Source: Sphagnum compactum (Eukaryota). From it: DNA of 64,000 nucleotides. A model generated the notes under the pieces. That model had not been told where the DNA came from. It did not search any database and saw nothing but the letters and a program-made list of their open reading frames with translations. Positions 4,168 to 54,825 of the stretch are shown here, in pieces. Positions within the stretch are counted from its first letter, which is position 1. Each line of letters begins with the position of its first letter. The stretch spans positions 3,410,001 to 3,474,000 of the forward strand of contig OZ234493.1 in NCBI GenBank assembly GCA_965153455.1, given 5' to 3'. The position numbers were made by a program, and so were the translations under genes.

Positions 4168-4559
4168 CCCACAATTTTTAAAATATGGAATTGGAAATTT
4201 TAAAAATTAATTCAAAATATTTTTCAATTTTTAAAATTATCAAAAGTCCTTTATCACATGCAAATGGGGCGTAATGTGCATGACATACAAAACAAACTTG
4301 TAATGTATGATTCAAAAAACAAAAACCCAAAGTAGTTAGCATTTTTTGGTGTGATTCAAAATTATGATAAATTTTCAAGATGAAATGCAAAATCTACACA
4401 CTTTGAAAAATTCATATTTATTCAACAATAATTAACACAAAACATGTGATCTATTAGGCCAACTATATGTATTTAAGATAACAAGTTGCAAAAGAAAATG
4501 TCACCTTTTGATTAATTTCACCCCAAAAAAAAGGTTGCCCTTAAGACATCACACATCCA

Positions 4560-5425
4560 TTTGAATATTTTTAGTGGAATGTGAAAACTCATCAAATAAC
4601 AAATGGTTCCTTTCAAGATTCCATTTTGGAACATTTGCACCATCATACCGTCACTAACATGTTCTCCAACAAGATACTTGATGCCCATCATGCCCAAATT
4701 TTATCATGTTTGGGCCCTAGGGCGGGTGCTTGGTTTATAATTCAACTAATCTTCCCAACTTTTCAATTTTTTTCTCTAATTTTCTTCACATCACTTCGGA
4801 TGTGGCCTGGATTAACACATCCTTCAATTGCAAGCCTCCCAAATGTGTATGCACACATCCAATTGACCCTATGGGTATTCACCTCTTATGTTGTGCCCAT
4901 GACAATGAATGCATGGGGACCCATGATGCAGTCCACAACACTTTTGTTGCAATTGCGTGAGATGTTGGTTTATACGAAGAACAAGAACAATTACATGCAT
5001 TTCCTTCAGCCATGTTCGATTCCTCTTGTTCATGAGTCAACATTGTGCTCATGAAAAATGGAATTTGCGCCCTAGTTGACATTGTCATAACCAACCCAAT
5101 GCTTGCGGATCTACCTCCTCAATCTTGCACAACTCAAAGATTTGCTACTTCCACCAAGCCAAAGAAAGGAGCTACCGCGATTGACACCCCACTTATCAAT
5201 TTTTCCCTCTAGCAATTGAGATATTTAGATGATTACACAAACATGCTTACGTGTTTTTACATAATTGAATCAATAGTATTTACAACCTACAAGAGCCAGA
5301 AGGCCTTCCCCTTTCTATCTTGATTACTTTTTTCATCAAAAAGTTTCAATTACGTTGCAAAAGATATAAGCATCTTCCATCTTCAATCGAGCAGTAACAA
5401 TAGGTCTAACTAGTTCCCAACTTCC
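4560..5425 (+). mobile_element. Decayed 3' end of a CRE-clade-like non-LTR retrotransposon (zinc knuckle + restriction-like endonuclease)
   Basis: Broken frames give AQILSCLGPRAGAW, CVCTHPIDPMGIHLLCCAHDNECMGTHDAV (CxC..H..C..HD), VNIV..ALVDIVITNP, AKERSY and FPLAIEIF. Many stops and frameshifts. Confidence 0.65.
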
Positions 5426-6975: not shown

Positions 6976-7402
6976 GGGGACGTCCACAGAAAAAGTTGCG
7001 AAAGTGATTAGCTTGTACTCCACGGTTGTTTAGATTCTCTAATTTCTGTTTACTTCGGTTGTTATTTAGCCACACACGCTGCGACCCACCAGATTCTTAT
7101 GTCTGAGAATTGAAAAATTTCCAAGTGATATCCGAGCAGCTAGTCGATTGCGCTGGCGCCGCGTGATGAGAAACAACTTTGCTCAAAGCGGGAAGTTGGA
7201 GTTCGACGGTTTTCCTAAATCGCCCATGTGGAGGTAAATGCTTGCAGTGGTTCCCTCCCCGCCCCAAAACCAAAAATTCCGACAACGGTAAATGCGTGTT
7301 TCTTGGGATGCAAGGATAGCAGCACGCCGAGTAGTTCTTTGTTGCAGAACGACCCCCTGGAGACTTTTCTTTGGTTTTGAGTAGGAGCTTACAGAGTATA
7401 TC
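6976..7402 (+). promoter_or_regulatory. Promoter of peptide gene copy 1
   Basis: GACGTC 6979-6984, GAAAAATTTCC 7112-7122, CCGCGT 7159-7164, AATGCGTGTTT 7291-7301, CTTG-N5-CAAG 7302-7314, TATA-like TATATC 7397-7402. These sit at equivalent positions in most paralogues. Confidence 0.55.
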
Positions 7403-7929
7403 AAAGAAACCGTTAGCTCCACTAATTCTTCACTGGAAAATCTCTTCTCCAGATCAAAGAGTGCAGCATCGAGTGGGATACTCATCAGTTAAATCACAAA
7501 CTTAGATTTTTCCATAGTCTTTACGAATCAGCTCAGTTAAGACATCATTCAACTGGCTTGTGGTGAACCGAAGTCCTGCAATTAGAGGCTTTTTCAATTT
7601 CAACGATCAATTAGCAGTTTCCTCTTTGAAAGCTTCGCTTCCAGCTTCTTCCAGCTCCTAGATCATATCTAAGTACTAGAATTCGTCCCTGCAGAATTCC
7701 TATTTTTCCTAATTTTCATTTCCCCCTGGATTCAATCTTCACCATTACAATACTTCCAGCATATTCCCTCCCCGTTCTAGATCTTGGTCTTCTTCGCTTT
7801 CTGGTGTGTGGATTCGATCCAAATCTGCAGCTTTCATTTGGAGCTACCAGACCACTGAAAGGGTGTCCAAGCCAGATTTCCTAAGGCTTGCAGAATTTGG
7901 TTTGTTGGATTACCACAGACAACAGCACA

Positions 7930-8307
7930 ATGACCTGGGCGGGGCTATCTAAGGTGGTGGATCCATGCAATAACCGCAAGAGTGTATCTGGAGGACAGGG
8001 GCATGAAGTACACCAGAGTTTCTGCGGCATGATGGCCCTCAACAATTGTCAGTATGTCTATCAGGCTGACAACGAAGGAGATGGTGGATCGTCAAACTAC
8101 AAACCTCCAAAGAGAACCCAGTTCGTAAAATCTTTTGGAGATGGCAAAGGATCGCCATGGAACCCCGCACCTCCCCCTAGGGGCGCTATGTGTACAGGGA
8201 ACACAAAGAATATTTTGGGGTGGGGAGTTGATGGAGGGAGCTATGGAGATGGAGGTGGGAGTAAAATTAACCTGGGAAGTGTGATCTCTGGTGACAATCA
8301 TCAGTAG
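7930..8307 (+). CDS. GDG-motif multi-core peptide precursor-like protein, copy 1 (125 aa; a 1-nt deletion alters the third motif and C-terminus)
   Basis: acaATG start at the position conserved in all copies. MTWAGLSKVVDPC...EGDGGSSNYKPP...FGDGKGSPWNPAPPP...YGDGGGSKINLGSVISGDNHQ. Sequence aaaattaacctggg versus aaaattaaacctggg in copies 2, 3 and 6. Confidence 0.6.
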   Translation: MTWAGLSKVVDPCNNRKSVSGGQGHEVHQSFCGMMALNNCQYVYQADNEGDGGSSNYKPPKRTQFVKSFGDGKGSPWNPAPPPRGAMCTGNTKNILGWGVDGGSYGDGGGSKINLGSVISGDNHQ

Positions 8308-14367: not shown

Positions 14368-16080
14368 TGGGGAGCGGGGGAGGGGGGCTGACCTTGACCT
14401 GATCCTGGGTACCTGGGCTCCAGTGTCCAAATCCAGTCGGAGCGGCGACGGGCTAGGAAACGCGGTACGATGTCTGGGCCCACTTTAAAAAGGATATCTT
14501 CGGTCTGTTTTCGTGGTGGTTTTTAGATATACAGTTGGTGTCGTTATATACCGAAACACTGTCAGTCAAAGGACTGGAATGCGTGGTCCCCAAATCTAAA
14601 GTGTGCCTAAATTTTTTTGTAGGACCTTTGAATTTTTACGGGCACATTCTATTCTTGAATATCACTCCTCTATGAACGAGGAAAAGTCTTACTGTAGCTA
14701 CTCAAGAATTTGAGGGAAATTATGCCAACTTATAGATTTAAGATCTTTCCAACTCTTAACTAGTAGGTGTAAGAACCCTCCTGTCTTACACCTTCTGATC
14801 TACCTCTGTTTAAGAGGTAGGTAAGGCCTGCAGATGGAGGGATTAGAATAATAAGGTGCCCGCCACTGACATCACCAAAATATGGCATCAACCTTAGGTG
14901 ATGGGTGCCTTACCATGTAATGATGTGTGAACCTTTGTTGTCCATATCAAATGGCCAAGATCCTACTCAAATTATGTTTATGATAATGTCATCATTTATG
15001 ATGGGGAAAGCCCACGAAAGGGGGGGGTAATCCCAAAATTTGGGGCCAAACTGTGCAACTGCGGAAGTCCTCATCTTAGGCCCTATATTTTGGGACTTCT
15101 CCCACTGTAGGCTTTTATCCTACTCGTGCGCAACTGATAGGAATAACTGTCAACATTAGTCAGATGGATTATAACTTAACTCTTTTCATTGGCGACATGG
15201 ATGAACTCATTAGATGTGATGGTGGACACGGAAGCCCCGACAGGATCTGTTTCGACAAATCTGTTCGGAAAGTCCATGATCCACCTAAATTTGTTGACGA
15301 TTTCGTATGAGCTTCCGGTAAATTTGGTCTGGGGACGTCGACAGAACAAGTTGCAAAAGTGAATTAGCGTTTACTCCATGTGGAGGTAAATGCTTGCAGC
15401 GATCCCCCACCCGCCAAAACAAACAATCCGACAACGGTAAATGCGTGTTTCTTGCGATGCAAGAATAGCAACACGCCGAGTAATTCATTCTAGCAGAACG
15501 AACGCTTGGAGATTTTTCTTTGGTTTGGCATGACTGGGAGCTTAGAGAGAATATATAAGAAACCGTTAGCTCCGCTAATTCTTCACTCAACAGTCCCTTC
15601 TCCATCAAAGGGCGCAGCATCGAGTGGGATATTCATCAGCTCAATCACAAAGTTGGATTTTTCCATATTCTTTTCGAATCAGCTCAATTAAGACATCATT
15701 CAACTGGATTGTCGTGAACCGAAGTCGTGCAATTACATCCTTTTCCGATTTCAACGATCAATTAGGAGTTTTCTCAGTGAAAACTTCGTTTCCAGCTTCT
15801 TCCAGCTCCTAGATCATATGTAAGTACTACAATTTGTCCCTGCAGAATTTCTATTTTTCCAAATTTTCATTTCCCCTTGGACTCAAGCTAGACCAATACA
15901 AGACTTCCAGCATATTCCCTCCCCATTCTAGATCTTGGTTTTCTTGGCTTTTTGGTGTGTGGATTCGATCCAGAGCTGCAGCTTTCATTTGGAGCTACCA
16001 GACTTCTCAGAGAGTGTCAAAGCCAGATTTCCTAAGGCTTGCAGAATTTGGTTTGTTGGATGACCGCAGACAACAACACA

Positions 16081-16444
16081 ATGACCTGGCCCGCGCTATC
16101 TAAGGTGGTGGATCCATACAAACCGCAAGAGTGTATCTGGAGGACAGGGGCAGGAATTACACACGAGCTTGTGCGGCAGGATGGCCCTCGAGAATCGCCA
16201 GTATGTCTATCTGGCTGACAACGAAGGAGACGGTGGATCGTCAAACTACAAACCTCCAAAGAGAACCCAGTTCCTCAAATCTTTTGGAGATGGCAAAGGA
16301 TCGCCATGGAATCCCCCACCTCCCCCTAGGGGCGCTATGTGTACAGGCAGCGCAACGAATATTTTGGGGTGGAGAGTTGATGGTGGTGGCTACGGAGATG
16401 GAGGTGGGAGTAAAATTAAACCTGGGAAGTGTGATATCTGGTGA
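16081..16444 (+). pseudogene. GDG-motif peptide precursor, copy 2, frameshifted
   Basis: Conserved ATG at 16081. A 2-nt deletion (tacaaaccgc vs tgcaataaccgc) gives a premature TGA at 16216-16218. The downstream frame still encodes all three motifs through ...KIKPGKCDIW*, with an in-frame ATG at 16181. TATATAA at 15552-15558. Confidence 0.65.
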
Positions 16445-19400
16445 CAATCATCAGTGGCAGCACCTCTGAATACATGAATTGCAGTACATGCTTAAGCTAG
16501 ATGGTTTTCTTGTTGCTGGAAAGAAAGCTCAGGACATTGAACCCAGTAAAACCTTTCTGGGTCTTTGTGCTTGAAGAATAGATAGCTTTAGGACATATTG
16601 AACACAAATTCTTTGTGGATTTTCCAAACCCATCATTCTTTTTAGCCATAGGAAGCAACCAAGCATGAAATAGTCATCAATTTATTTCAATTTGTACATA
16701 CATAGGCCATTTATTGTGCTCAATTTTTTCACCTGTGGTTAGCTACCCCAATCCCTTGTGTATCCCAGCAGACCATTGGGCCAGTTACAGAATAAGGGGG
16801 GAAGAAGGAAAAGAGAAACAAAGTAGTTAACAGCACCTGGAATTCCTATTCAGTTCACACATTTTGTGGAACTTAGCTTGTACATAGGAAGAATCTCTTG
16901 AATAAAGACCACGTGCGGTGCATGTACATATAACCAATATTGAGCTCCTTTACATGCCAGGCCTTTCTAAAGATTTGAGGTTGCATACATGAGGCCAATG
17001 CACCATGATCCACCTTTGGTTGTCTGCATTTCCAAGTGAGGAAGCCAGAAGCAATGAGTCTTGATATGAAGAAATAGCCATCCAGGTAGTCCAAGGTATG
17101 CATCAACTACTCGCATCCATGGCCAATACTGGAATCGTTGTTGGGGCGCAGGTCAAATTTTAGTAGTAATAAAAGTCCTCCTATCTGTTGGAACAACTTT
17201 GGCAATTTTATGATTGTGGAATACTAGGCTATAAGTCAGGAATTCTTGACATTCAAGTCTGAAGAGTACTCAGATGCCCCCATGTGGAAACCATGATATA
17301 CTGTCCATTCTGCTCAATTTCAATCAGAATGACATTTTAACTTCTACTAGAATGATGTGAGAAGTAAGCCAAACTGGGGATGAAATGAGAAGTCAAGATC
17401 TCAAAACGCTACAGCAGGAATTTTTTTAAAAAAATCTCAGCTAAATCAGTTGTCCGGGGATGAAACTAGTTTTCTCAGCTAAATTGGTCCTCAGGGGACC
17501 AAAGTAGATCCAGTTTGCCTCGAAACAAAAATTCCTAAATAAAACAATGGTGCCAATATCACTTAGAGAGTGTGATCAGGCTATTACCAGTCTGTCAAGT
17601 GTTGCCTGCGTTTAGGGTTTAGGATACATCCTCAATCCTAAACCAAGTAGAACATCTGGTTTCCTTCTGGACTTCGCTTTTTTTTTCAATCATTTGTTTA
17701 GTGTTTGGGTTGAGTTCAATGAAACTCACATGGGCTTGGATTAACTTTTGTACAGGAACTCTGAGGATGAAATCTGCACATACTACTTAACTAAACCCTA
17801 AAGCCTGGCAAATGGCGGGGATTTCCAAGCTTTCTTCAGTGACTCATTAGAAACTGGCCTCCAAATGCGGTTAACGAATTGGTTACTTTTCTCCTGGGTT
17901 ACTTTTTGCCGATGATCTTCCTTGGAACATTGTTAAGCAATGACTGGTTAGTATTGCAGGTAAGGAAAAGAAAGAAAACACTTGTATATACAAAAGGCAG
18001 GGATGGGAACCCATCCGCAAGAAGTACCAAGGCAAATAAAAGCCCAAGAACACATGTCATGAAAGACCATAACAATGAGGACACCACTAATACACTAATA
18101 AAATAGAAGACCGTAAACTAAAAACAAGTAATTTGTCACAAATCAGGTAATCATGGAGGCGCACTGACAGAGATGAGGAACGCCTCCCAAACGCAGTAGC
18201 ATGTTGCAAAATCACAATGGCCTGTGCACCTTAAGGTAAAGGATATTGAATTAGTATGATGATCACAGTACATCTCTTGAGATGTTTCCTAGGAGGGTTT
18301 TTTATTTGAATTTCGTGATGTATTCAAATTGGTGATCATCCACCAGAAGATTTAGCCAAATTTGGCTATAGATTAGGTAAGAAAATAATTGAAAAATTTA
18401 AGAATCCTTTACATATTTGGCTACATGCTAGAATCCAATATAGAAATCTAGCGGTTTTCAAAAAGTAATTGTTGAAATCTGGCTACTAGAAACAAAAGAA
18501 TACATATTTTCAGCCATTTTGGAAAACAATTAACCAACTACCTACATTTAGCTAGGAAAAAAATGTTGTTGACACGGGGTTGGGGGTGGGATTTTTTTTG
18601 TTCTCAATGTGTTCCCATGAATTTTCACTTTATTCTCATCAAATTCTCAACATGTTCCCAATAGCTCTTTACTTTGTCCCAATTCTTTGCCTTAAGTTCT
18701 ACTTTTGTAACCTATATAACCAACCTGAAGGAGGAGGTTACAACATATCTATTTTGGGATTATCCAGAGATTTTTTTATTTTTTTTATGGGCCAATCTGA
18801 GATGCCTATCAAAAAAGACAAAAAAATTGAACTTTGGGAGTCCTTGTAATTGATTATTAACCTAGTACTTAAGTTGGTTAGGCACCAATTAATTATTTTT
18901 TGGAATTGCCAAAAATTCTGAAGCTTGCCATGCAAAAAACCTACATGAAACTCTCAAGCACAATAGTTTCATTATTTAGTACAATATCTAATTTTCATTT
19001 TCATTTTTAATGTTGAACAATAAATAAATAAATATTAGGCACCTCAATGCCAAACCATCCTAAATATTATGGTATGAGTCACAATATACTGTCATTGGGT
19101 GATTCTCACTTTTTTTGAACTACCAAATGTGGTTTTCGTAAGGGTTTGAAAAACCTACTTGGTTTTTTTTTTAAAATTATATATGAGGACCCGGACAAAG
19201 TATCAAAGTTTTCATTCTATATCATTTCACCAGTTTTGTATGAATTTTCAATCACCAACCTTATGACGATCAAAAAATTTCAATCACCAATGTTTCGGCA
19301 ACTAAAAACATTTCGACCACCCATCTTTGTGGTGATCAAAACATTTCAATCGCCACAAAAAGGAGGCGTGTCATATGTTTTAAAAAAGCCCTTGATAAGA

Positions 19401-21021
19401 ACATATGACACAACCCCCTTTCTTGGTGACCGAAAAAATTTGATCACCATTTGACAATGGCAGTCTATCAGATGGTGACTGAATTCTTTTGGTCGCCATT
19501 TAACACACCTACACCATCAACTAGTGACTGAAATTTTTCGATCGCCATCAAATGGTGTGGGTGTGTTGGATGATGACCGAAAAAATTCGATCACCATTCA
19601 ACAATAGGGGTATGTTAGATGGCCATCGAATTTTTTAGTCCCCAAGTAAAAGGGCATGTCACATGTTTTTGAAAAGTCATTGATGAAGGCTTTTGAAAAA
19701 GATGCCACAAGCCAACCTTTTGTGGCAACTAAAAAATTTCGATTGTCACAATTACCATAGGGGGGTACCGAATTTTTTTTAATCACCATTCAAAACATCC
19801 CCACTATTGGATGGCGACTAAAATTTTTCAATCACCCAAGAGGGCATGGTAGGGATGATTTTTTTTTCAAAAATGATATTACATGGCCCCCCCTCCTTTC
19901 CACAATCAAAAAATTTTACTCGCCATCCAACATACCCCAATCATTAGATGCCAATTGATAAAGGTGGGGGCCTATGCTATGATTTTGGAAAAAATAATAA
20001 TTTCATGCTTCATTTTCCTTTCTAGGGAATCAAAGAATTTAGGTTGCCATTCGATGGTGTGGGTGTGTTAGATGGCGACTGAAACTTTTTGATTGCCACA
20101 AAGGGGTCCTAACCAAAAACATTTCAGTCATCCATCCTTATGGCGACTATAAATTTTTAGTCGCCAGAGGAGGTGACCAAAATGGGACAAGGTGTGGCAA
20201 TTGAAAATTTTTCGGGACCATCTTATTATCATTATTTTTCGGATGATGACTAAATTTTTTTCAGTTGCCACAAAAGGGGGTTGTAATATGTTTTGGGAAA
20301 ACTTTCGTCAAAAGGTTTTCAAAACATGTGGCATGCCCCCTTTTCTAGCGACTCAACCTGAAAAATTGTGGCGATTGAATGGTGACCATATTTTTTTAAG
20401 TCGCCCATCCTTGCGGGTGATTGAAACAAGCAAAAAGGGGTTTGTCATATTCCCCATTTTTAGTCTCCATCTGATGGCAACAATCGAATCTAATGGCAGC
20501 AATTGAACCCATTTTATTTGCCATCCAATAGCGGCAGTCGAATCTATTGGCAATCGAATCCATTTTGGTCGCCATCCGACGAGGCCAAGTGAAGTCAACT
20601 AGGGCTAGTGAATTCATGTGGCATTTCATGAAAACTCTTCATTTAGTTTTGTTTTTCCTTCCCATCATTTGTTTTTTTTTCTTTCCTTTGTTCTTTAGTC
20701 TTTTGTCCCCAATCCCCCCCCCCCTTTTTTTTTCTTTTTTTTTGGTATGTTCCTACCTTCTATTTTGTTTTCTTTCATCCCCCCTTTTCATTTTTAAATT
20801 ATTCTTCAGTTATTAGTCCCCCCCCTTTTGTTTTTTTCTTTTTTTTCTTTCGATTTCACCTTGTGTTTTTTTTCCTTTCTTGTTTTGTTCCCACCCCTTC
20901 ATTTTCCCTTTTTCTTCATCTTGCTCTTTCTTTTCTCCTCTGCTTAGTCTTGCCAATATTTTTCCCTTGTTCGTATTGCATTTTTTCCCTCTCTTTTTCA
21001 TTTTTTTCCTTGTCCCTTTGT

Positions 21022-25480: not shown

Positions 25481-27199
25481 TTCCTATTCTTATCATTTTA
25501 CCTAGATAGGTCCTCACAATCTTCATTTGACATTGCCACTAATGATCTTTTAGCAAAAACAAAAACACAATGTCGTGATGAAGAAGATGTATTAACTTTA
25601 GTCCATCTTGAAGGAATGAAGGTAGAGGATAACTTGGTTTGAACTAAAATTCTTGAAAATTTAAAAGGGGGCCAATGTGGTTATACATAATTCCAATGAA
25701 ATAAGGATCAACCATCAAGTTTTGAAAGCATAGGCCCTTAGATGATAAAAGATTGAAATATTTCTATGATGAAAACTTAAGAGTTTAATTCTAGAATTCT
25801 TAGGAAGTAGGTATAAAAGATGAGACCTTCAAAAAATAAAAATATTTAGGTTCTTAGAGTCCAAAATTCAATTATGATAGGGTGTGTAGTCAGATTTGGG
25901 CAGATTACTAGGGTTAGGGCAATTTTGTTAACTCCCTAAAACTTGTTTAATAATCGGATTGAATGGTGGGTTGTTTTTTGTTCTTTTGATGTTTTACATG
26001 TTAAAGTAGACAACTTGAAAGAGTTAGAAAAATCATGAGCATGTGAGGGAGTAAGAAAATCAACTATTGTTGTCTAGGAGACAAAATGGAAGGAGTTTTG
26101 CAACTATGGAGGAGGTATGAAAATAATAGAAGAAGGAGGAAGCAAATAAGGTGAAACTATGTAGGGGAACAACATAGTTTTTTTGGGGGTGTGTGTGTGT
26201 GTATTATATAGACATCCAAGCATAGAAGGGGGAAATAAAATGTTTAGCAGAGGCAAAAAGTGGGACTTCAAAGAAGTAGATAACTTGAGATTGGCAAAAA
26301 ACTTGGAGAATGGATCATGAGAAAACTTTTGAAAACAAATAAAGATAAAGTGAGGGAGGTTGTGGGAATGTTGTGCAAATTAGGAAATAGTTGTTGAGTT
26401 GTTGCCCATGGTTTGTTGGGGATCAAGAGGTTTTTTTGTTTTAATTAAATCTTGATGAATGCTAGGAAGGGTAGAAGATAAGTGGATAATACGATTTCAG
26501 ATAGAAACCAAGAAAACAAGGTTTGAGTGTAGATAGGTATGGGTATAATGGTTAGTAAATGTGAATTGTTCTAGAATTAAAATTTCAATGCTTGTTCAAA
26601 TCCACATACTACCCCTTGGTAAAGTTGCCAAAGGTATAGAGAACGAACCCAATAGCAAGTTGAACAAATAATTATAATTAGGATTAGAGAGTTAATATTT
26701 TGTTTAACATGCACCGTAGGTTGGTGGGCAAGGTGTTTTGGTGGGTCAAGTTTCTAGCTTAGGTTAGGTAGTTTAGTGAGGGTTCTTAGGTGCCTTGCAT
26801 AGGTTTGTAATTAATTATTAGTGTATTAATTATTGATGATTTAATATATTAGTGAATTTATTATTAATGATTTAACTATTAGTGAATTTGATTAATATTA
26901 ACCAATTCAATTAGTTATTTTTGAATTCACCTGTTCGTAATAACTCATCCCTGTTAATTAAAGGGTTGCCCACTTTCAACATTTTAAATTTATTCAATTT
27001 CATTCAAAATTTAATAAAAAATAAAGTGAACTTGGATGCATATTGGTGTAGTGTATGGCATGGTGCCATGGGGTGCAAGGAGGATTAAGTAATGGCATCA
27101 TTTTAAGGGCTTTAATTTTTAAATGGACATGTCACATGGCCAATAATGATGTCAACTTTTGGTTAATTTCACCCCGAAAAAATGGTTGCCTTAAGACAT

Positions 27200-28160
27200 C
27201 ACACATTCATTTGAATATTCTTTCGAGGAATGTGAAAACTCATCAAACAACAAATGGTTCATTTCAAGCTTCCATTTTGGAGCATTTGCACCATCGTGCC
27301 ATCACTAACATGTTTTTTGACGAAATTTATGAAGCCCATCATGCCCAAATTTTATCATGTTTGGGCCCTAAGGTGGGTGCTTGGTTTATAATATGACTAA
27401 TCTTTTCAACCTTTTAATTATCTTCCCCAATTTTTTCCACATCACTTCGGATGTGGCTTGGATAACACATCCTTCAATTGCAAGCCTCCCCTAGTGTGTA
27501 TGCACACATCCAATTGACCCTATGGGTATTCACCTTTTGTGTTGTGCCTATGGCAATGAATGCATGGGGACCCATGATGCAATTCACAACACTTTTCTTG
27601 CAATTGTGCAAGATGTTGGCTTAGACGTGGGACAAGAATGATTACATGCACTTTTTTTAGCAATTCTCGATTCTTCTTGTTGATGAATCAACAATATGCT
27701 TATGACAGATGGAATTCGCACCTTAGCTGACATTGTCATAGCCAACACAATGTTTGTGGATCTACCTCCTCAATCTTGCACGATTCAAAGATTTGCTATT
27801 TCAATGCAACTCAAGCCAAAGAAACGAGTTATCGTGACGAACACCCCACTAATCAATTTTTCCTTGTAGCAATTGAGGTATTTAGATGTTTACACAAACA
27901 GGCTTACGTGTTTTTACACAATTGAATCAATATTATTTGCAACCTACAAGAGCGAAAAGGCATTTCCCTTTTCTGTTTAAATTTTTTTCTTCATCAAAAA
28001 GATTTATTTACATTGCAAAAGATACAAACATCTTCCATCTTAAATCAAGCAATAACAGTAGTCTAAATACTTCCCAACTTCCACCACTTCAAGCCACACC
28101 ATCACCGCCATGGCTGATCTATTACAAGCAATTGGTTGTTGAGATGGAGATTTTTTGACA
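27200..28160 (+). mobile_element. Decayed CRE-like LINE 3' end (duplicate of 4560-5425, less 3'-truncated)
   Basis: Collinear homology with 4560-5425; same CxC..H..C..HD and endonuclease-like remnants. Confidence 0.65.
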
Positions 28161-29874
28161 TCTAGTTTGTGCTAACTTGACATCCTTTAAATTCTCCGTT
28201 GTTTTTGATAGCTTTGGACATTTTTTGAATCTGCACTGTGTTTTATAAATAAAGTTTTGCAGGGTTTTAATAATAATAATAGTAAGAATGTGAGAGGACC
28301 CCAATAAGGACATCTTTTTATTAGACTGCCGTGATCAGAGCAGCCTCCTGGAAAGAGACCCTGAATCTCATCTTAACCAATGCTTGACTTGTTGTTAATG
28401 CTCAAGAGTTATATTCTCAAAACATATTTAAACAAACTTGCAGATGAATACAATTTCTTTCCTGTTTTGTGCACACATGTTCGTTGGTAAAAGAGCATCA
28501 CAAATTTTCACATTAGAAGCTGAACAAGGTCCAGGAAGGCACTTATTAGAGCTTCATATGATACCTGATTAAATTATCACCAGCTCAAAGCACAGGATTT
28601 GAAGTTTCCGGTGTCCTGGAAAATGACATATAAGCAATCTCACAATTGAGAAAATATTGATTAATTTTTTGGGACCTATATCTGCAGACTTGGGGTCGAC
28701 TCCAGGTTTACAGTCTTTTTTACCAACGCACCGTTTTCAAAATGCAGCTGAATGAAGATTTGGCACTTGAAGAAAAATAAGCCCACACTAAGTCTGATAC
28801 TAATACTACCTTGAGGTAGGCACAAGTTGATGTCTGGGCTCATTTTAAAGAATATTTTTGGTCTGTTTTGGTGGTGCTTTTGATATGCAGTTGGTATCAT
28901 TATATACTGAGCCGGGGTCAGTCAAGAGTCTCAATCAAAGGACTGGATGCATGGTCCCCAAATCTAAGTGTACCTAAGAAATTTTGTAGTGCATTTGAAT
29001 TTTTGAGTGCACCTTATATTCATGAATATCACCCCTCTATAGAAGAGGAAAGATCTTACAATAGCTAATACTCAAGAATGTGAGGGAAATTATACCTACT
29101 TACAAGTTTAAGATCCCTCTTGCTCTTAAATAGTAGGTGTAAGAACCCTCCCCTCTTATGCCTTATGATTTACCTATGTTTAAGTGTTAAGTAAGGCCTG
29201 TGAATGGAGGCGGTACCAGAATAAGGTGCCCACCACTGGCATTACCAAAATAAGGCATCCACCTTAGGCAATGGGTGCCTTATTTTGATAAATCACCATC
29301 CAAGTGCCTTACCATGGGTAAATGATATGTCAACATATGTTCTTCATATCTAATGGCACTCATATTATGCAAAGAAAGAACAGCCAAACCTAAACAAAAT
29401 GTTCGAGCCACCTAGATATGTAAGGTGACCTTCAGTATCAAGCGGGAATATTATGTATTTTAAGCACCCTCCAAATCCTCTGGGAAATCTCTGAGAGGTG
29501 ATTATGTTTATGATAATGTCATCCCTTATTTTGGGGAAAGCCCATCGATAGGGGGAAATCCCACAATGTGGGGCCCGAGTCCAGAGCCCAGACTGGGCAA
29601 CTGCCTAAGTCCTCATCTTAGGCTCCATATTTTAGGAATTCTCCCACTCTAGGGCCTTTTCCTAAAGGTGCGCCAACTGATAGGTATAACTATTAACAGT
29701 AGTCAGATGGATTATAACTTCACTCTTCTCATTAGCGACGAGGATGACCTCATTAGCTGTGAGGGTGGACACCGAAGCCCAGAGACGATCTGTTTCGACA
29801 AATCTGTTCGGAAGGACAATGCTCCACCGAAATTTGTTGACGATTTCGTATGAGTTTCCCGTAAATTTGTTCTG

Positions 29875-30372
29875 GGGACGTCCACAGAAGAAGTTGCGAA
29901 AGTGATTAGCTTCTACTCCACAGTTGTTTAGATTCTCTAATTTCTGTTTATTTCGGTTGTTATTTCGCCACACATAATGGGAAATGGGCATGCTGCTGGC
30001 GCTGCGACCCACCAGATTCTTATGTCTGAGAATGGAAAAATTTCCGAGTGATATCCGAGCAGCTAGTCGATTGCACTGGCACCGCGTGATGAGAAATATC
30101 TTTGCTCAAAGCGGGAAGTTGGCGATGGGGAGCTACGAAAATTTTCAGTTCGTTACATAATATGTCGGAGTTCGGGTTTTCCTAAACCGCCCATGTGGAG
30201 GTAAATGCTTGCAGTGGTACCCTCCCCGCCCCAAAACCAAAAATTCCGACAACGGTAAATGCGTGTTCCTTGGGATGCAAGGATAGCAGCACGCCGAGTA
30301 GTTCTTTGTTGCAGAACGACCCCCTGGAGACTTTTCTTTGGTTTTGAGTGGGAGCTTACAGAGTATATAAAA
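29875..30372 (+). promoter_or_regulatory. Promoter of peptide gene copy 3
   Basis: GGGGACGTC, GGAAAAATTTCC, ACCGCGT, CTTG-ggatg-CAAG 30269-30281 and TATATAAAA 30364-30372, 533 nt before the ATG. Confidence 0.6.
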
Positions 30373-30896
30373 GAATCCGACAGCTCCGCTAATTCTTCAT
30401 TCGACAATCTCTTCTCCAGATCAAAGAGTGCAGCATCGAGTGGGATATTCATCAGTTAAATCACAAAGCTAGATTTTTCCATATTCTTTACGAATCAGCT
30501 CAATTAAGACATCATTCAACTGGCTTGTGGTGAACCGAAGTCCTGCAATTAGAGGCTTTTTCAATTTCAACGATCAATTAGCAGTTTCCTCTTTGAAAGC
30601 TTCGCTTCCAGCTTCTTCCAGCTCCTAGATCCTATCTAAGTACTAGAATTTGTCCCTGCAGAATTCCTATTTTTCCTAATTTTCATTTCCCCCTGGATTC
30701 AATCTTCACCAATACAATACTTCCAGCATATTCCCTCCCCGTTCTAGATCTTGGTCTTCTTCGCTTTTTGGTGTGTGGATTCTATCCAGATCTGCAGCTT
30801 TCATTTGGAGCTACCAGACCACTGAAAGGGTGTCCAAGCCAGATTTCCTCAGGCTTGCAGAATTTGGTTTGTTGGATTACCACAGACAACAGCACA

Positions 30897-31262
30897 ATGA
30901 CCTGGGCGGGGCTATCTAAGGTGGTGGATCCATGCAATAACCGCAAGAGTGTATCTGGAGGACAGGGGCATGAAGTACACCAGAGTTTCTGCGGCATGAT
31001 GGCCCTCAACAATTGTCAGTATGTCTATCAGGCAGACAACGAAGGAGATGGTGGATCGTCAAACTACAAACCTCCAAAGAGAACCCAGTTCGTAAAATCT
31101 TTTGGAGATGGCAAAGGATCGCCATGGAACCCCCCACCTCCCCCTAGGGGCGCTATGTGTACAGGGAACACAAAGAATATTTTGGGGTGGGGAGTTGATG
31201 GTGGGGGCGATGGAGATGGAGGTGGGAGTAAAATTAAACCTGGGAAGTGTGATCTCTGGTGA
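30897..31262 (+). CDS. GDG-motif multi-core peptide precursor-like protein, copy 3 (121 aa, intact)
   Basis: MTWAGLSKVVDPCNNRKSVSGGQGHEVHQSFCGMMALNNCQYVYQADNE-GDGGSSNYKP-PKRTQFVKSF-GDGKGSPWNP-PPPPRGAMCTGNTKNILGWGVDGGGD-GDGGGSKIKP-GKCDLW. First ATG after the TATA box. Frame supported by synonymous differences versus copy 5. Confidence 0.75.
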   Translation: MTWAGLSKVVDPCNNRKSVSGGQGHEVHQSFCGMMALNNCQYVYQADNEGDGGSSNYKPPKRTQFVKSFGDGKGSPWNPPPPPRGAMCTGNTKNILGWGVDGGGDGDGGGSKIKPGKCDLW

Positions 31263-34200
31263 CAATCATCAGTAGCAGCACCTCTGAACACATGAATTGC
31301 AGTACATGCTTAAGCTAGATGGTTTTCTTGTTGCAACCTTTCTGGGTCTTTGTGCTTGAAGAATAGATAGCTTTAGGACATATTAAACACAAATTCTTTG
31401 CGGGTTTTCCAAACCCATCATTCTTTTTAGCCATAGGAAGCAAGCAAGCATGAAATAGTCATCAATTATTTCAATTTGTACATACATAGGTCATTTGATG
31501 TGCTTAATTCTTTCACCCATGGTCAGCTACCCCAACCCCCTGTGCATGCCAGCACACCATTGGGCCAGGTACTGAATAAGGGGGGAAGAAGGAAAAGAGA
31601 AACAGAGTAATTAGGAGCACCTGGAATTCATATTCAGTTCACACATTTTGTGGAACTTAGCTTGTACAGAGGAAGAGTCTGTTGAATAAAGACCAAGTGC
31701 TGTGCATGTACATATGACCAATATTGAGCTCCTTTACATGCCAGGCTTTTCTAGAGATTTGAGGTTGCATACATGAGATCAATGGACCATGAGTCAAATT
31801 TTGGTTTCTGCATTTCCAAGTGGGAAAACCAGCAGTAATGAGTCTTGACAAGAAGAAATAGCCATCCAGGTAGTCCAAGGTATGCATCAACTACTCTCAC
31901 CCATGGCCAATACTGGAATCGTGGTTGGGGCCGAGTTCAAATTGAAGTACTAATAAAAGTCCTCTATCTGTTGGAACAGCTTTGGCAATTTTGTGGTTGG
32001 GGAATACTACAAGTCAGGAATTCTGGACATTGAAATGTCAAGACTACTCAGATGCCCCATGTGGAAACCATTATATACTGTCCTTTGTGTACAAATTTCA
32101 ATCAGAATGACATTTTAACTTGAAGAATGATCCGAGAAGTACACCAAACTAGGGCTACTAAGCCCCAGTTTCACAAAAACTGGGGATGAAATGAGAAGTC
32201 AGGATCTGGAAAGAGTGCACAAGGGAAAAAAAAAGTGTTCTTGGTTCTTAGGGCAGTTGCACCCTCAGTTTTGGATTTGCGTTATCTGTGTCTGGATTGT
32301 GCTGCTGTGCTGCTCGTATTCTTCATTAAATCAAGCCCTGTTAGAATACAATTGTACAAATCCTCTGAACTGATAGAGAGTTTCATGAAACCAACTCGAT
32401 TTCAGTCACTTTACAGCTACACTCAAATTGGGGATGAAGCAGGAATTAGAGGGTCAAATTAGGGCCCAAATGATGGGTGATTTTATAAATATCTGTATTG
32501 GCCTCCAAGTAATGATTGTTAGTAGTGCCAATAAGCCTTTTTCTTATTGGCAAAATTTTGCCAAAAAGCGAAATTAAAATTTAAAAATTTGAAAATGAAG
32601 TGATTTTGGAGGCTTTGAATAGCCAAAAGTGAGGGAAAAACAAAGTTAAAAAATCCAGATTTTTATATTTGCTTTTTAGTGTGTAACCAAAATTATAGGA
32701 GGATTAAAGCTTTGTGTATCAGTTGTTTTAATAGCCAAATTTAGCTAAATCTTTCTAAATATGATAGCCACTTTTTGTACATCTTCCTAACAATGCTTGC
32801 CACTTTGGCTACAAACAAAAATTCCTAAATGAAACATTGGTGTTAAAATCACTTACAATGTGATGGGGCTATTACCAATTTGTCAAGTATTGCCTAGGTT
32901 TAGGATGCATCTTCAATCTGAAACCAAGTAGAACTGGGAAGACAAAATAAGTCCAATACTAGAAAGTAAATAATTTAAGGTTAGGTTTTTCTCTCTCTTT
33001 CAATTTGGGATTACCTTGTTGGAGCTTTTGGCCTTGTGCATTATGAGCAACGACATAAAAAAAAACAGGTTAAGAGTGACATGTGCATTTACAATTGTAA
33101 AGTTTTGTTGTTTAGCCATCTATTTTCACTATGCCAAAAATGGTATTCATGATTTGATCATTTTATTATTAATGCTCAAACATAGCCATGTAGTCATATG
33201 TGACATGTTAAATGCTTTGTAATAATTATTATGACTACGTGACTATAGTCATGTCCTCTGTTGATAATATTTACAACTTGGGATGCAATTAATGACAATT
33301 AATCCTTCCAAGTGGATGAATTGTTGGTGATTTCTCATTCACCTAACCCATCACATATCACATTAGTCACAAATATAACTAAATATTGGTCACAATGATG
33401 ACATGGACTTAAAGTTGTTAAATGTTTATTAAAGTTTATGATGGATATACTAGGAATATGTTACACTAGGATATATATCTAGGAATGTAGCAATAAGTTG
33501 GGGGTCAATGATAGGTAGGTAGGCCTATCTATTTAATTACCTAGGCTATTTACTTATCTACCTATGCTTACTTGCCCACTTACTAGCCGACTTTGTTTTT
33601 AGTTGAACAGTAGTTGAAAACATAGTTGCAAAAGGGGGGGTTTTCTACGAGTGACTCAAAAATTTAACATTGAAATTTTTGTGTTTGCATTTTCAGACTT
33701 TTGTAAAGTTCTAAATTAGTTAAATATGTGTTATGGCATCACAAGAAAGGTTGTAAAACCCTAACATGCGGTGGTATCACAAATAAAACAACACTAAGTG
33801 ACAATAATAAACAATCTACATTATGCCATTAAAAGTGAGTCTTTGCAACTTGAAGTGAAGAAATGTTTAGTAGATGGGCAACAATGGGCGTGTCACAACA
33901 CATTGCTTGCAACCATTAGATAAAGGTTGCAACATTTTGTCATTGTTCATTCAATCCAAACAATGTCATAAGAGAGGTTGCAAAACCCCAAGGTGCGGTG
34001 GTACCACAATAAAACAATGCCAAGTGGCAATAATAAACACTCTGCATTATGCAACTAAAAATAAATCTTTACAACTTCAAGTGAAAAATGTTTAATAGAT
34101 GGGCAACACATGGGTGCACCACAACATAATTGCATGCAGCTATCAATCATTATTCTTCAAGGAAAACTTCACACATGGCGTCATAAGAAAGACTACTAGC

Positions 34201-39794: not shown

Positions 39795-40160
39795 TCACCA
39801 GAGATCACACTTCCCAGGTGTAATTTTACTCCCACCTCCATCTCCATCGCCCTCACCATCAACTCCCCACCCCAAAATATTCTTTGTGTTCCCTGTACAC
39901 ATAGCGCCCCTAGGGGGAGGTGGGGGTTTCCATGACGATCCTTTGCCATCTCCAAAAGATTGGAGGAACTGGGTTCTCTTTGGAGGTTTGTAGTTTGAGG
40001 ATCCACCGTCTCCTTCGTTGTCAGCCAGATAGACATACTGGCAATTGTTGGGGGTCATCATGCTGCAGAAGCTCTGGTGCAATTCCTGCCCCTGTCCTCC
40101 AGATACACTCTTGAGGTAATTGCATGGATCCACCACCTTAGTTAGCCCTGGCCAGGTCAT
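39795..40160 (-). CDS. GDG-motif multi-core peptide precursor-like protein, copy 4 (121 aa; in-frame ATG 7 codons upstream at 40181)
   Basis: MTWPGLTKVVDPCNYLKSV...NE-GDGGSSNYKP-PKRTQFLQSF-GDGKGSSWKP-PPPPR...EGD-GDGGGSKITP-GKCDLW. Same length and stop as copies 3 and 6. Confidence 0.75.
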   Translation of the reverse strand: MTWPGLTKVVDPCNYLKSVSGGQGQELHQSFCSMMTPNNCQYVYLADNEGDGGSSNYKPPKRTQFLQSFGDGKGSSWKPPPPPRGAMCTGNTKNILGWGVDGEGDGDGGGSKITPGKCDLW

Positions 40161-40669
40161 TGTGCTGTTGTCTGCGGTCATCCAACAAACCAAATTCTGC
40201 AAGCCTGAGGAAATCTGGCTTGGACACTCTCTGAGTAGTCTGGTAGCTCCAAATGAAAGCTGCAGATCGGGATCAAATCCACACACCAAGAAGCCAACAA
40301 AACCAAGATCTAGAACGAAGAGAGAATATGCTGGAAGTATTGTGGTGGTCAAGATTGAATCCAGGGGGAAATGAAAATTAGTAAAAATAAGGATTCTGCA
40401 GGGACAAATTCTAGTACTTAGATATGATCTAGGAGCTGGAAGAAGCTTTCAATGAGGAAACTGCTAATTGACCGTTGAAATTGAAAAAGCCTCTAATTGC
40501 AGGACTTCGGTTCACCCCAAGCCAGTTGAATGATGTCTTACTTGAACTGATTCGGAAAGAATATGGAAAAATCGAACTTTGTGATTCAACTGATGAATAT
40601 CCCGCTCGCTGCTGCACTCTTTGATGGCGAAGAGATTGCTGAGTGAAGACTTAGCGGAGTAAACGGTTT

Positions 40670-45017: not shown

Positions 45018-45338
45018 TGTTTCTGTCTCCAGCAATCAACCAACAAATAAAGAAAAAATCTAACTTTGAGATTTTAAATTGATTGCTAGTATCGAAGCCT
45101 GCAAGGTCCGTCGCCACCACCCAGAATTCTTCGTCAATTGCAAATTTAGTCTCTAATTGCAGGACGTTGCTTCACCACAAGCCAGTACTTGAATGATGCC
45201 TTGAGCTGCTGATTCGGGAAAATATGGAAAAATCTAGCTCTATGATTTAACTGATGATCCCACTACTCGATGCTGCACTCTTTGAAGGACAAGAAACTCT
45301 ATATGCTGTGTGAAGAATTAGAGGAGGCAACGGTTGTC

Positions 45339-45674
45339 TTATATACTATAAGCTCCAGTGCTGCCAACCCGAAGAAAAATCTGCTGGGGTCTTTGTGCAG
45401 CATTGTCGAACTACTAAGCGTGTTGCTAATCTTGCACAGCAAGAAACACGCATTTACCAATGTCGGTAAAATCTCTTGTGGGTGGGTGGGGATCACTGCA
45501 AGCAGTGCCTCCAAATGGAAAAACCACGAAACTCCTACTTACAACGAACTTGTAAGTAGAGAATTTCGTAGTTCATCGCCAACTCCTCCCCAGCTATGAG
45601 TCGCAGTTAGATGTTTCTCACAAACTGCAATTGACTAGAGAGTGAGCTTCGATATAACCACTGGGAAATTTTTC
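45339..45674 (-). promoter_or_regulatory. Proximal promoter of copy 5
   Basis: TATATAA (reverse) 45339-45345, CTTG-cacag-CAAG 45431-45443, AAACACGCATT, W-box TTGACT 45631-45636, GGAAATTTTTC 45664-45674. Confidence 0.55.
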
Positions 45675-47789
45675 AATTAGCAGACTGAAGATGGTGGGTC
45701 ATATTGAGAGCATCAGCTGATGATTCAACGGTTTGACAAAACTGCAACAGATTACCAAGCCCTAAAAACCTCCACTGAAATTCATAGTGTAGTTTGGGGG
45801 ACCTCCCAGTTCTAACCTGGTTGTGGGTTGTTAGTAGGTAGGTAGTAACAAAAAAGGAACTGAGCTAACTAACCACCATGGTTAGCTAGGGAACTGGAAC
45901 CCAACAGAAAATTGTTATATGAATACCCCCTGGGTCTGGTTCATAGGGATCTAGGAGTAGGGAGTCTAAGTTTAGTTAGGGTTTAGGGTCTTAGGTGAAG
46001 GTGAATTTAGGATCTATTTTTGTTTCGATATTTTAGCTTTGTAATGAACCTTGCTGATATATTTTTTTGGCCTATGACAATTTGAAAAAACATTTAAAGA
46101 TCTTAATCTTAAAATTTTTAAGTGAGGTTTGAAATTTGGCTTAATATAACTGACTAATCAAAATAAGTTAAGATTTGGTTGTGAAAGAATAAATTGGGCA
46201 TGAGGAAAAATAAAAATAAAGAACTAAACAACAAATGATTTATAAAATTGTGAGAACCACATTAGTTTTCTATTTTATATTTTTTTGAAAATTGGAATAG
46301 ATGGTTATGAAAAAAAAAATTATAATTGCCCAACATTGGTAATATCCCTAGGATGGGGGAGATTTGTTTTTTTAGATAATTTGCAACACTAATTTGAATG
46401 CACATGGATTTTTATGGAAGGGGAGGTAATGTTGTTAGTGCCTTTGCCTTGGATCAATATCTAATTTTTAAAATAATTGTTGGGTTTGGGTTTAAGATTT
46501 AATTTATTTATTAAAAAAATGGTTAGTTTGAAATTTTTTAATTCCAAGGATAGGTCAGTATGAAACAAGGTTGGGGGTTGGATCCATTTGAAGGGGTATA
46601 CATTCCCAACTAATATCCTATTAGGTTCTTTAAGACATGTTGATTCTTTGAAAGAAACCCTACCAGGGATAATGATGATTTTTTACTCGGATCTTAAAAT
46701 GCAAGTTGAAAAATGTCTTGTATTAAACATTGTAAAATGGGGAAACCATGAGCAAAACATGCAAAGTTTCCAAACTTCATTGTAACTAAATTACAATTAC
46801 AATAGGTTTTTTTTGTTTTCTTTAATTTCTAAACTATAAACCTAATTGAAAAGAGTTAATGTTAATATGAATCAAAATGATAGTTTTTTTTTTAATTGGT
46901 TATATTATAGGCCACTCTTCCATGCTCCATCCATGTTCCATGTTTCATATATAGTTTTAGATGGGTTCTCAAGGACATATTCACATATTTTGAACTCCTT
47001 TTAAAGATGAATACATAAATTACAAATGACAAACCTCAAAGATAAAAAAACTTTAAAAAACAAAAAAAATTCAAAAATCTAAACCTATTTCAAAGATAGA
47101 TAGACCTAAAAAGCAAACACATTTCAAAAATCCAAACAAACTTCAAAGACAAACAAACTTTGAAAAACAAACAAATTACAAAAATCCAAATAGACCTCAA
47201 AAATGAAAACAATCTTTCATAATAAAAAGGATAGACATTCAAAAACAAATACAAGACAAAAGGCCTCACAATATAAGGGACACACATTCAAATAACAAAA
47301 AAGACCTCAAAGTAAAAAAGACAAACATTTGAAAAACAAAAAGACCTACAAAAAAATATTATTTTCAAATATAAACCATCAATATTTCAAATTTCCCATC
47401 AATCCCTAACTCATTTCAAAGACAAACTAATACATAGACAAACATTCCAAAAAATTTAATGAAATCCTCACAATTTGGAAACATAAGAGAATTTTTTATG
47501 CAAGAACCTTAACAAAATAATCATTTCATCATCTTCATGGACACTCAGTATGTGTAAGGACTTATACATTTGGCTAATTGCTATGTAGCAAAAAGCTATA
47601 AACTTTAGTAACCTACATATTCCAAAAACAATTCACAAATTGTCCCACCATCCCATAAAGTGTACTATTGTGAACATCTAAAAATTAATCACATTCAACT
47701 TCATCCACAAATTTAGCATCCAACTCCTTTGCCAAGTCAAATTCAGCTTCACATATAGATGCCAAATATGTAGGTTTGAAATAACCAAC

Positions 47790-53399: not shown

Positions 53400-54825
53400 T
53401 CTCCATGTCAAAAATTAATCGCTTGTAATAGGTCGGTTGTATTTCACTATGTCAAAAATTGACCATTTGCAATAGGTTGATCATAATGATGGGAGGTGTA
53501 TCTTGAAGGGGTGGAAGTCAGGAAATAGTTAGGTCTATGGCTACTGCCTGACTTAAGATGGAAGATGTTTGCATCCTTGATAATGTGATTAAAAATTTTT
53601 GATAAAGAAAAGAAAACCAAGACAAAAGATGAGGGCCCTTTGGCCTTTTCAAGCTCCAAATGGCATTGGCACAATCGTGCAAAAACACATCAGCTTGTTT
53701 GTGTAGATATCCAAATATTTCAATTACTAAAGAGAGGAATTGATCAATGCGATGTCGGTCATGATAGCTCTTTTTTTTTGCTTGAATTGCATCGGAGGTA
53801 ACAAATCCTTGAGTTGCGCAAAATCGAAAAAATAAATATGTTTAAGTCTGGTTGCCAATGACCACATCAACTAGTGAACACATGTTATTTTTGGTGAACG
53901 CAATGTTGACTTGTCGACAAAAGGAATTGAATGTGATTAAAGGAAACGCATGTAGTTATTTTCATCCCATGTGAAAGCTAGCATCTCACGCAATGGCAAC
54001 AAAGGCGTGGTGAACTACATCATGGGATCTTGTGCATTTGTTGCCATGAATGCAACATAAGAAGTGGATACCCATAAGGTCAATGGGATGTGTGCACACA
54101 CATCGAAGGATACTTGCAATTGAGGGATGGGGTAGTCCAAGTCGTGTTTGAAATGTTATGAAAAAAATTAGGGAAGATAATCAAAAGGCTAAAAAGATTC
54201 GTCAAATTGTAAACCAAGTGACTACCCTTGAATCAAAACATGATAAAATTCGAACACGATGGGCTTTAAATATCATGTCGAAGAACATGTTGCAAAAAAT
54301 ATGATGGTGGAAATGGTCCAAAATGAAATCTTGAAGTTGAACCATTTGTTGTTCGATGAATTGTTCAAATGGAAGAAGACATGCATGAATTGGGGGCAAT
54401 AGAAGATCACATGCCATTTTGAGATGTTGTTGGAAAGAGAAGGTGTTATTGTTAACTTGTGCTAAGACTTTAACATTGATCAACCATAAACTAAATAACT
54501 ATGATTGAAATTACAAGGGCCCAACTCTTTAAATAGGCTACTAGGGCGATGGTGGCTATCGATATGAGCCCAATGCCATCAAAGGTTGTTGGGAAAGAAG
54601 ATTGTTTATGGGCTAAAAGTTTTTTTGGGCTATCAAAATATTCGAAAACCAAGAGGTGCCCAAAGATTTGAAAGAGGGATGAATCAAAAGAAATAAAGGT
54701 CTTTACGAAGGTGGAAGAGAAAGGTGTGCATTGTAAGAAATATGATGGCCATTGCACAAAACAATGAGTTAAAATTTCAAAGGTTACTTGAACATCACCC
54801 ATCTTAGGGAAAAGGTCCTTAAATA
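53400..54825 (-). mobile_element. Decayed CRE-like LINE, longer 3' fragment
   Basis: Minus strand reads DLFPKMGDVQVTFEILTHCFVQWPSYFLQCTP...GIGLIS...AYLKSWALV, then HRVRILSC, CVCTHPIDLMGIHFLCCIHGNKCTRSHDVV and FLSLVIEIFGYLHKQAD. Homologous to 4560-5425. Confidence 0.7.

Follow-up and report, generated by a model that had tools for sequence, protein, structure and literature searches.

Known leaderless peptide precursors carry no signal peptide, and Propep1 and Prozip1 are, by prediction, for the most part without structure, as set out in part of PMC13157962; there, metacaspases are described as cleaving after R or K in flexible regions, and phytaspase substrates as VNLD- and VEID-based, with a hydrophobic residue at P4. 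Orbitide precursors hold a variable core between a conserved leader and a conserved follower, or carry conserved recognition sequences between their cores, and multi-core plant precursors of peptides made on ribosomes and modified post-translationally (RiPPs) exist, according to part of PMC11253845. Here we analysed a stretch of 64,000 nucleotides from the moss Sphagnum compactum (contig OZ234493.1, positions 3,410,001 to 3,474,000 of the forward strand; hereafter the window), in which a small open reading frame (ORF) encodes a protein of 121 amino acids (aa) with three similar decapeptides, each running from a Gly-Asp-Gly (GDG) start to a final Pro.

By analogy, the family to which this gene belongs appears to resemble two known kinds of protein, motif-bearing disordered proteins and leaderless peptide precursors. 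With disordered proteins that bear short linear motifs it would share conserved islands in a neutral, unfolded chain, a repeated motif and a Pro5-Arg stretch past motif 2. It is like PROPEP, prosystemin and PROZIP1 in being small, without a signal peptide and predicted to be unstructured, with short conserved islands, one of them near the C-terminus, and basic residues adjoining them (as these precursors are described in part in PMC13157962); it differs from them in having three similar islands instead of one, in showing no sequence similarity to them and in being limited to Sphagnum. Orbitide and other multi-core RiPP precursors are likewise short, with several similar peptide-sized units that start with Gly and end in Pro, but the arrangement is inverted in the Sphagnum family, where conservation lies in the units while the flanks vary freely, and the unit length is not kept in one of its subfamilies (C). 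The genes themselves had already been predicted, as hypothetical proteins, in public Sphagnum annotations.

Three decapeptides are the selected units of the protein

The gene carrying the motifs is the third of six related copies in the window. The gene and its conserved sites were located as follows.

30897..31262, + strand: copy 3 (P0001), the gene carrying the motifs, a single-exon ORF of 121 aa and a stop codon, from its translation
31044..31073, + strand: motif 1, GDGGSSNYKP, residues 50-59; G50, D51, G52, G53, S55, Y57 and P59 invariant in 30 members
31104..31133, + strand: motif 2, GDGKGSPWNP, residues 70-79; G70, D71, G74, W77, P79 and the following P80 invariant in 30 members
31182..31199, + strand: LGWGVD, residues 96-101; conserved only in subfamilies A and B
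31212..31241, + strand: motif 3, GDGGGSKIKP, residues 106-115; G106, D107, G109, S111 and K112 invariant in 30 members

The initial annotation had described three GDG...P decapeptides at these positions, each followed by a basic residue, and both descriptions were borne out by the translation of the ORF, in which the decapeptides begin at residues 50, 70 and 106. Motif 2 continues into a Pro5 stretch and an Arg (to 31148), and motif 3 ends six residues before the C-terminus. The core common to the motifs reads G-D-G-G/K-S/G-S-x-(Y/W/I)-(K/N/R)-P; next to it there is usually another Pro and, past that, a basic residue. The basic positions comprise [KR][KR] past motif 1 in all three subfamilies, R/K past the Pro stretch and the invariant K117. 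The residues preceding motifs 1, 2 and 3 are E, F and D, respectively, and never Pro, and before each motif stands a brief stretch of hydrophobic or aromatic character (YVY, FVKSF and ILGWGV). In the alignment of 30 member proteins, 17 of the 24 invariant columns fell inside the 30 motif residues.

The three motifs are present and non-random. At least three instances of GDGx6P occurred in none of 200,000 shuffles that preserved the composition of the protein, and at least two occurred in 35. A pattern-free control, in which any three-letter word followed by six free residues and one letter had to occur at least three times, was satisfied by 35 of 50,000 shuffles. The sum-of-pairs BLOSUM62 score of the three decapeptides was 95, compared with 79 for the best shuffled triple (300 shuffles). 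When the three motif-bearing units were compared profile to profile, the probabilities were 76%, 93% and 57%, versus 0.1-0.2% for a control segment from the N-terminal part.

Selection was evaluated by codon parsimony on a maximum-likelihood tree. The 31 related loci recovered from metagenome contigs were reduced by dropping six partial loci, one with a match length not divisible by three and eight duplicates, and the two frameshifted window copies were excluded, which left 20 distinct full-length coding sequences (CDS; four from the window and 16 loci). The changes and the ratios of non-synonymous to synonymous rates (dN/dS) were distributed as follows.

Motif 1: 9 synonymous and 6 non-synonymous changes, dN/dS 0.22
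Motif 2: 11 synonymous and 11 non-synonymous changes, dN/dS 0.31
Motif 3: 15.5 synonymous and 4.5 non-synonymous changes, dN/dS 0.09
The three decapeptides together: 35.5 synonymous and 21.5 non-synonymous changes, dN/dS 0.19
The other 91 codons: 54 synonymous and 200 non-synonymous changes, dN/dS 1.00

The difference between the decapeptides and the other 91 codons was significant across the 20 CDS (Fisher p = 4e-9). Given a dN/dS of about 0.19 in the motifs and of about 1.00 in the other 91 residues, the three decapeptides are the selected units of the protein, and the rest behaves as a neutral spacer. The LGWGVD segment had a dN/dS of 0.57, with few changes. Two short segments following motifs had ratios above 1, residues 60-69 (31074-31103; one synonymous versus 12 non-synonymous changes) and residues 116-121 (31242-31259; one versus 16), with counts that are small and not significant alone.

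A tblastn search with the copy 3 protein found six copies in the window, four of them intact and two frameshifted, contained in duplicated DNA units of approximately 2-5 kb that lie in either orientation. The five copies other than copy 3 were the following.

7930..8307, + strand: copy 1, 95.7% identity across 116 aa; its C-terminal tail is altered by a 1-bp deletion in motif 3
16081..16444, + strand: copy 2, frameshifted by a 2-bp deletion near codon 14; all three motifs intact downstream
39795..40181, - strand: copy 4, intact, with 128 aa when read from an upstream ATG; 86.8% identity over the shared 121 aa
44640..45017, - strand: copy 5, intact, 125 aa, of the divergent subfamily B, 52% identity; identical to protein P0035
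61662..62048, + strand: copy 6, intact, with 128 aa when read from an upstream ATG; 83.5% identity

The variants that the initial annotation had attributed to the paralogues were all found: copy 5 has GDGGPSNYNP, copy 4 has GDGKGSSWKP and GDGGGSKITP, and copy 6 has GDGKGLSWKP. Copy 5 has retained the motifs while the remainder has diverged, and its comparison with copies 3, 4 and 6 gave a dN/dS of 0.17-0.27 in the motif-bearing cores versus 0.83-0.94 outside them. The deletion in copy 1 (at 8245-8274) takes away the Pro of motif 3. Copies 1 and 2 (deletion region of the latter, 16081-16130) may be pseudogenes, or copy 2 may restart translation at an internal Met pair; forms of 88 aa that start at the internal Met pair are predicted in other assemblies (P0053, P0055). 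Two predicted proteins from other Sphagnum assemblies (P0008, P0009) run partly in a shifted frame, which points to frameshifted copies elsewhere and to birth-and-death turnover of the cluster.

The protein is probably intrinsically disordered, as judged from a fold model and from composition. AlphaFold2, run on the 30-sequence alignment, returned a mean predicted local distance difference test score (pLDDT) of 46.8 and a predicted template modelling score (pTM) of 0.14, with no residue at or above 70 and a single helix of four residues. The grand average of hydropathy was -0.80, and 69% of the residues were disorder-promoting. The maximum hydropathy over 19 residues was 0.16, so that no segment qualifies as a signal peptide or membrane anchor, and the maximum over eight residues within the first 30 residues was 1.00; this check for a signal peptide is a hydropathy calculation, as distinct from the output of a dedicated predictor.

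Distribution within Sphagnum, a related repeat family and RNA contigs

Within the searches made, the family is found only in Sphagnum. The nearest proteins were a hypothetical protein of Sphagnum magellanicum (121 aa, 96% identity) and others of S. fallax; the gene is predicted in the public annotations of S. fallax, S. magellanicum, S. jensenii, S. troendelagicum and S. balticum, to which a cluster look-up added S. tenellum. A profile of ten members, searched against 1.84 billion representative proteins, gave six matches at E <= 0.001. Three of them (P0005, P0010 and P0012) traced to Sphagnum species or clusters, and a fourth (P0009) reads as a frameshifted subfamily B copy. The remaining two (P0011 and P0013) were unrelated repeat proteins without the motif and were treated as chance matches. 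On these sequence comparisons, the family appears to belong to no described protein family among those tested: the copy 3 protein matched no Pfam family at E <= 10, the family alignment had no match in a profile search of the PDB at E <= 10, and the ESM Atlas held no usable neighbour of the copy 3 protein or of a protein of the repeat family described below (P0061). Literature searches on the S. fallax and S. magellanicum gene identifiers found no paper (supplements lay outside the search), and nothing on the family was found among the papers listed on Sphagnum orphan or lineage-specific genes.

Three subfamilies were distinguished, each retained in several Sphagnum species of different subgenera. 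Subfamily A (121-128 aa) lies on chromosome 7, where subfamily B (125 aa, the copy 5 type) is interleaved with it; an A gene and a B gene also stand approximately 5 kb apart on one metagenome contig (L023, L026), as copies 4 and 5 do in the window. Subfamily C (140 aa, approximately 37% identity) lies on chromosome 12 of S. fallax. It retains GDGG.S.Y, SFGD...PWNPP and GDGGGSK, with the Pro of motif 1 mostly one place later, motif 2 in the form GDP with an insertion, and motif 3 without its Pro. Motifs 1 and 2 are spaced by 20 residues in subfamilies A and B and by 28 in C, a difference more in keeping with flexible linkers than with a rigid domain.

These homologues qualified several features reported for the window. 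The GDG start, said never to vary, is constant at all 18 motif sites of the window, but two B-type proteins have GDR or GDE in motif 3 and subfamily C has GDP in motif 2. The segment LGWGxD before motif 3 stood as LGWG[VF]D in subfamilies A and B only. As for the ten-residue frame from Gly to Pro, 30 of the 44 family proteins contain GDGx6P three times, four contain it twice, two once and eight not at all. The frame is broken by the lost Pro in motif 3 of copy 1 and absent from all three motifs in eight of the nine subfamily C members; a failure of homologues to keep the Gly-to-Pro spacing was an outcome that the initial annotation itself had named as refuting.

A second family limited to Sphagnum (P0010, P0058-P0067), located on chromosome 6, consists of five to seven near-identical tandem units of 21-22 residues with the pattern IISVPDGGSSxWRPPxxNS, the number of units varying among species. 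With hhalign, motifs 1 and 2 in their 20-residue spacing aligned onto two successive units of this repeat family (probability 87%, E = 3.8e-6); the longer repeat, of approximately 20 residues, therefore has the decapeptide as its conserved core. A more general form of the motif is D-G-G-S/G-S-x-aromatic-basic-P-P. The two families are alike in the DGGSSx(W/Y)(R/K)PP core, in the period of approximately 20 residues (that of motifs 1 and 2) and in their restriction to Sphagnum; the repeat family is unlike the first in its five to seven near-identical units, in its hydrophobic IISV spacer and in having Pro-Asp instead of Gly-Asp. Three of the repeat proteins scored 26.7, 30.7 and 22.2 against Pfam DUF5744 (PF19015; cut-off 25), which is marginal, and P0001 (at E <= 10), P0012 and P0035 had no match to it. 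A literature search on DUF5744/PF19015 found no paper. A search for longer, fused forms of the repeat family returned none at E <= 0.01, which is weak evidence. The fold model of the repeat family (pLDDT 38.2, pTM 0.28) was too uncertain for use.

The gene is real and present in RNA libraries. The region covered by RNA contigs was as follows.

approximately 30500..31450, + strand (strand taken from the ORF, not from the contigs): span of RNA-library contigs from three moss metatranscriptome libraries of three studies

Contig depth was above zero only in the bins spanning approximately 30409-31452 and was zero in 29800-30408 and 31453-32400 in every run; both uncovered flanks are part of the same duplicated unit as the gene. 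The contigs were colinear with the genome over the CDS and had no joint inside it; the CDS therefore contains no intron.

Docking sites, released peptides and other readings

In our assessment, the best reading of the family is that of repeated short linear docking motifs in an intact disordered chain, and we hold it tentatively. Conserved islands in a leaderless, unfolded and neutrally drifting chain, at variable spacing, suggest residues that some other component reads. The option of the initial annotation in which a disordered protein carries a short linear motif several times fits the absence of a fold in the AlphaFold2 model, the share of disorder-promoting residues, the selection confined to the motifs and the variable spacing. 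The three similar sites on a flexible thread would engage partner domains of one kind, several at once, and the second site may be extended by the Pro5-Arg stretch, a possible polyproline ligand. Polyproline ligands bind profilin, SH3, WW, EVH1 or GYF domains. The chain would act intact, by binding, and would stay in the cytosol or the nucleus. We are aware of no class of motifs described so far to which the GDGG-S-x-aromatic-basic-Pro-Pro core would correspond.

Several observations weigh against the docking reading. A peptide precursor would be expected to show the same restriction of conservation to the motifs; of the six copies in the window, two carry frameshifts; and the shallowness of the alignment, with its 30 close relatives, may account in part for the low pLDDT. 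Pairwise dN/dS values among the close A-type window copies were noisy (0.34-1.5, with few changes), and parsimony undercounts multiple hits on the long branch between subfamilies A and B. Between copy 5 and the A copies, the block of motifs 1 and 2 had a low synonymous rate (dS 0.16-0.23, compared with 0.44-0.58 in the N-terminal part) and a dN/dS of 0.39-0.89; because of this low dS, gene conversion or nucleotide-level constraint may add to the conservation. The RNA contigs reveal neither the strand nor the level of expression. A stretch of 33 bases at 31334/31335, in the 3' untranslated region, is missing in copy 3 and present in the other copies and in the contigs of runs X4 and X8, and part of the RNA signal therefore comes from sister copies or sister species. 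Finally, a poly-A RNA-seq run contained one read of the gene in approximately 12 million.

The nearest rival is a leaderless, cytosolic precursor that would be cut after basic residues, e.g., by a metacaspase upon cell damage, into linear signalling or defence peptides in the manner of PROPEP, prosystemin and Zip1, with the 22-residue stretch T63-R84 (from the KR pair to R84) or the C-terminal motif 3 as possible products. Selection on the motifs alone in a neutrally evolving carrier, a predicted unstructured chain without a signal-peptide-like segment, conserved basic residues past each motif, and small, tandemly multiplied, lineage-restricted genes are all in line with such a precursor. However, the protein has no sequence relation to known precursors (no Pfam family at E <= 10, and only Sphagnum relatives in the profile search), the cleavage context on the N-terminal side of motifs 1 and 3 is not conserved, K67 lies inside the putative 22-mer, and we know of no example of a leaderless precursor that yields three similar peptides; we therefore regard this alternative as rather unlikely. 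Its Asp-specific variant, with cleavage between Asp and Gly of the motif start, lacks the hydrophobic residue at P4 that phytaspase substrates carry. Extended to the whole cluster, this line of thought would make it the first bryophyte signalling-peptide system of its kind, limited to Sphagnum, in which a leaderless carrier is cut after basic residues upon damage or stress into up to three GDGG-type peptides and the protein of five to seven repeats is the polyprotein version, a proposal that we consider unlikely. A bolder variant of that proposal would have the Trp or Tyr sites flanked by Gly, Ser and Asp serve as multivalent hooks for a conserved cellular machine, much as GW-type Argonaute hooks do. 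The initial annotation had also suggested that the cluster encodes a library of cyclic decapeptides, which would be excised from Gly to Pro and cyclised head to tail by a prolyl-oligopeptidase-type cyclase, with the paralogues as a small library. The proteins would then be RiPP precursors, and an orbitide would call for a dedicated, PCY1-like cyclase. The Gly start, the Pro end and the length of ten residues in all three motifs of 30 of the 44 family proteins, as well as the multi-core architecture described for some plant precursors, agree with it. Nevertheless, the putative cores are the most conserved part of the protein (dN/dS of 0.19 versus 1.00 elsewhere) and the flanks are neutral, the reverse of orbitide precursors; the ten-residue frame is lost in most of subfamily C despite the kept motif cores; no motif is preceded by Pro; and the repeat family has Pro-Asp for Gly-Asp in a unit conserved over its entire 21-22 residues. 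The words 'moss' and 'bryophyte' do not occur in the main text of PMC11253845, and a literature search combining Sphagnum with orbitide, cyclic peptide or RiPP gave no Sphagnum paper among those listed. The cyclic library is thus disfavoured to the point of being scarcely credible.

Two further explanations deny the motifs a role as ligands. One is a young, fast-turnover orphan ORF of little or no function, the conservation of which would stem from gene conversion or from constraint on the DNA or RNA. Frameshifts in two of the six copies and in predictions from elsewhere (P0008, P0009), a dN/dS of 1.00 across three quarters of the ORF, the low dS between subfamilies in the block of motifs 1 and 2, and the very low read support in one poly-A run favour this view. 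The excess of synonymous changes in motif 3 (15.5 versus 4.5) and motif 1 (9 versus 6) opposes it, since such an excess indicates constraint at the protein rather than the DNA level, as do the maintenance of all three subfamilies in several Sphagnum species of different subgenera, the persistence of the motif at 37% overall identity in subfamily C and its recurrence in the independent repeat family; we consider a functionless ORF improbable. The other is a structural repeat, in which a hydrophobic stretch and a Gly/Asp turn would fold upon self-association or the binding of a metal such as Ca2+, the GDGG cores being turns or ligand loops. It can draw on the short hydrophobic or aromatic stretch before each motif, on the Gly and Asp identity of the invariant residues and on the low-confidence model of the repeat family, which puts strands on the IISV segments. 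Yet both models are of very low confidence (pLDDT 46.8 and 38.2; pTM 0.14 and 0.28), the hydrophobic stretches and linkers evolve neutrally with a spacing that is not conserved, and no calcium-binding repeat or other match was found in Pfam or in the PDB profile search (E <= 10), so that a structural repeat seems very improbable. Two additional candidates were tried and rejected. In fungal precursors of the MSDIN type, the leader is conserved and Pro flanks the core at either end; here, no Pro stands before the motifs, the N-terminal region is neutral and the organism is a moss. Cell-wall proteins of the extensin and proline-rich protein (PRP) classes bear a signal peptide together with numerous Ser-Pro(n) or Pro-rich pentapeptide repeats; a secreted hydroxyproline-rich protein of this kind was dismissed, as the protein has no signal-peptide-like segment, a single Pro5 run and no Pfam match.

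The surrounding window and the meaning of the motifs for Sphagnum

A block located 5' of the ORF (30006-30566, with counterparts at 7224-7599, 15375-15735, 45136-45700 and 60840-61352) retains 70-75% identity even with copy 5, a level of conservation approximately equal to that of the coding region; it probably contains the promoter and the start of the 5' untranslated region. An antisense ORF within it (30153-30455) had no Pfam family and no cover by RNA contigs. Ten of the 27 window ORFs of at least 110 aa were scanned and matched no Pfam family, and no adjacent enzyme or receptor gene was seen, although short exons would escape such a scan. An inverted pair of 1.8-kb repeats (2057-3828 versus 19243-21005, 82% identity), the long ORFs of which are of low complexity and rich in Phe, Leu, Pro and Ser, is probably pyrimidine-rich repeat DNA and not genes. 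A further repeat family has three copies (4498-5425, 27149-28082 and 53513-54370; 68-85% identity), the ORFs of which, 114-159 aa long, matched nothing in Pfam; it may be what is left of a mobile element.

Sphagnum builds peatlands, which are among the largest carbon stores on land, and a large share of its gene space is without relatives elsewhere. In the family described here, the signal is unusually clear: three quarters of the protein drifts freely, while three sites of ten residues are fixed across species and paralogues. If the motifs are not ligands, the family would still be a well-delimited example of selection on motifs alone in a young gene family. If they are ligands, either within the intact chain or released from it, they would constitute a regulatory or damage-signalling module specific to the genus and would provide a handle on the second Sphagnum repeat family.

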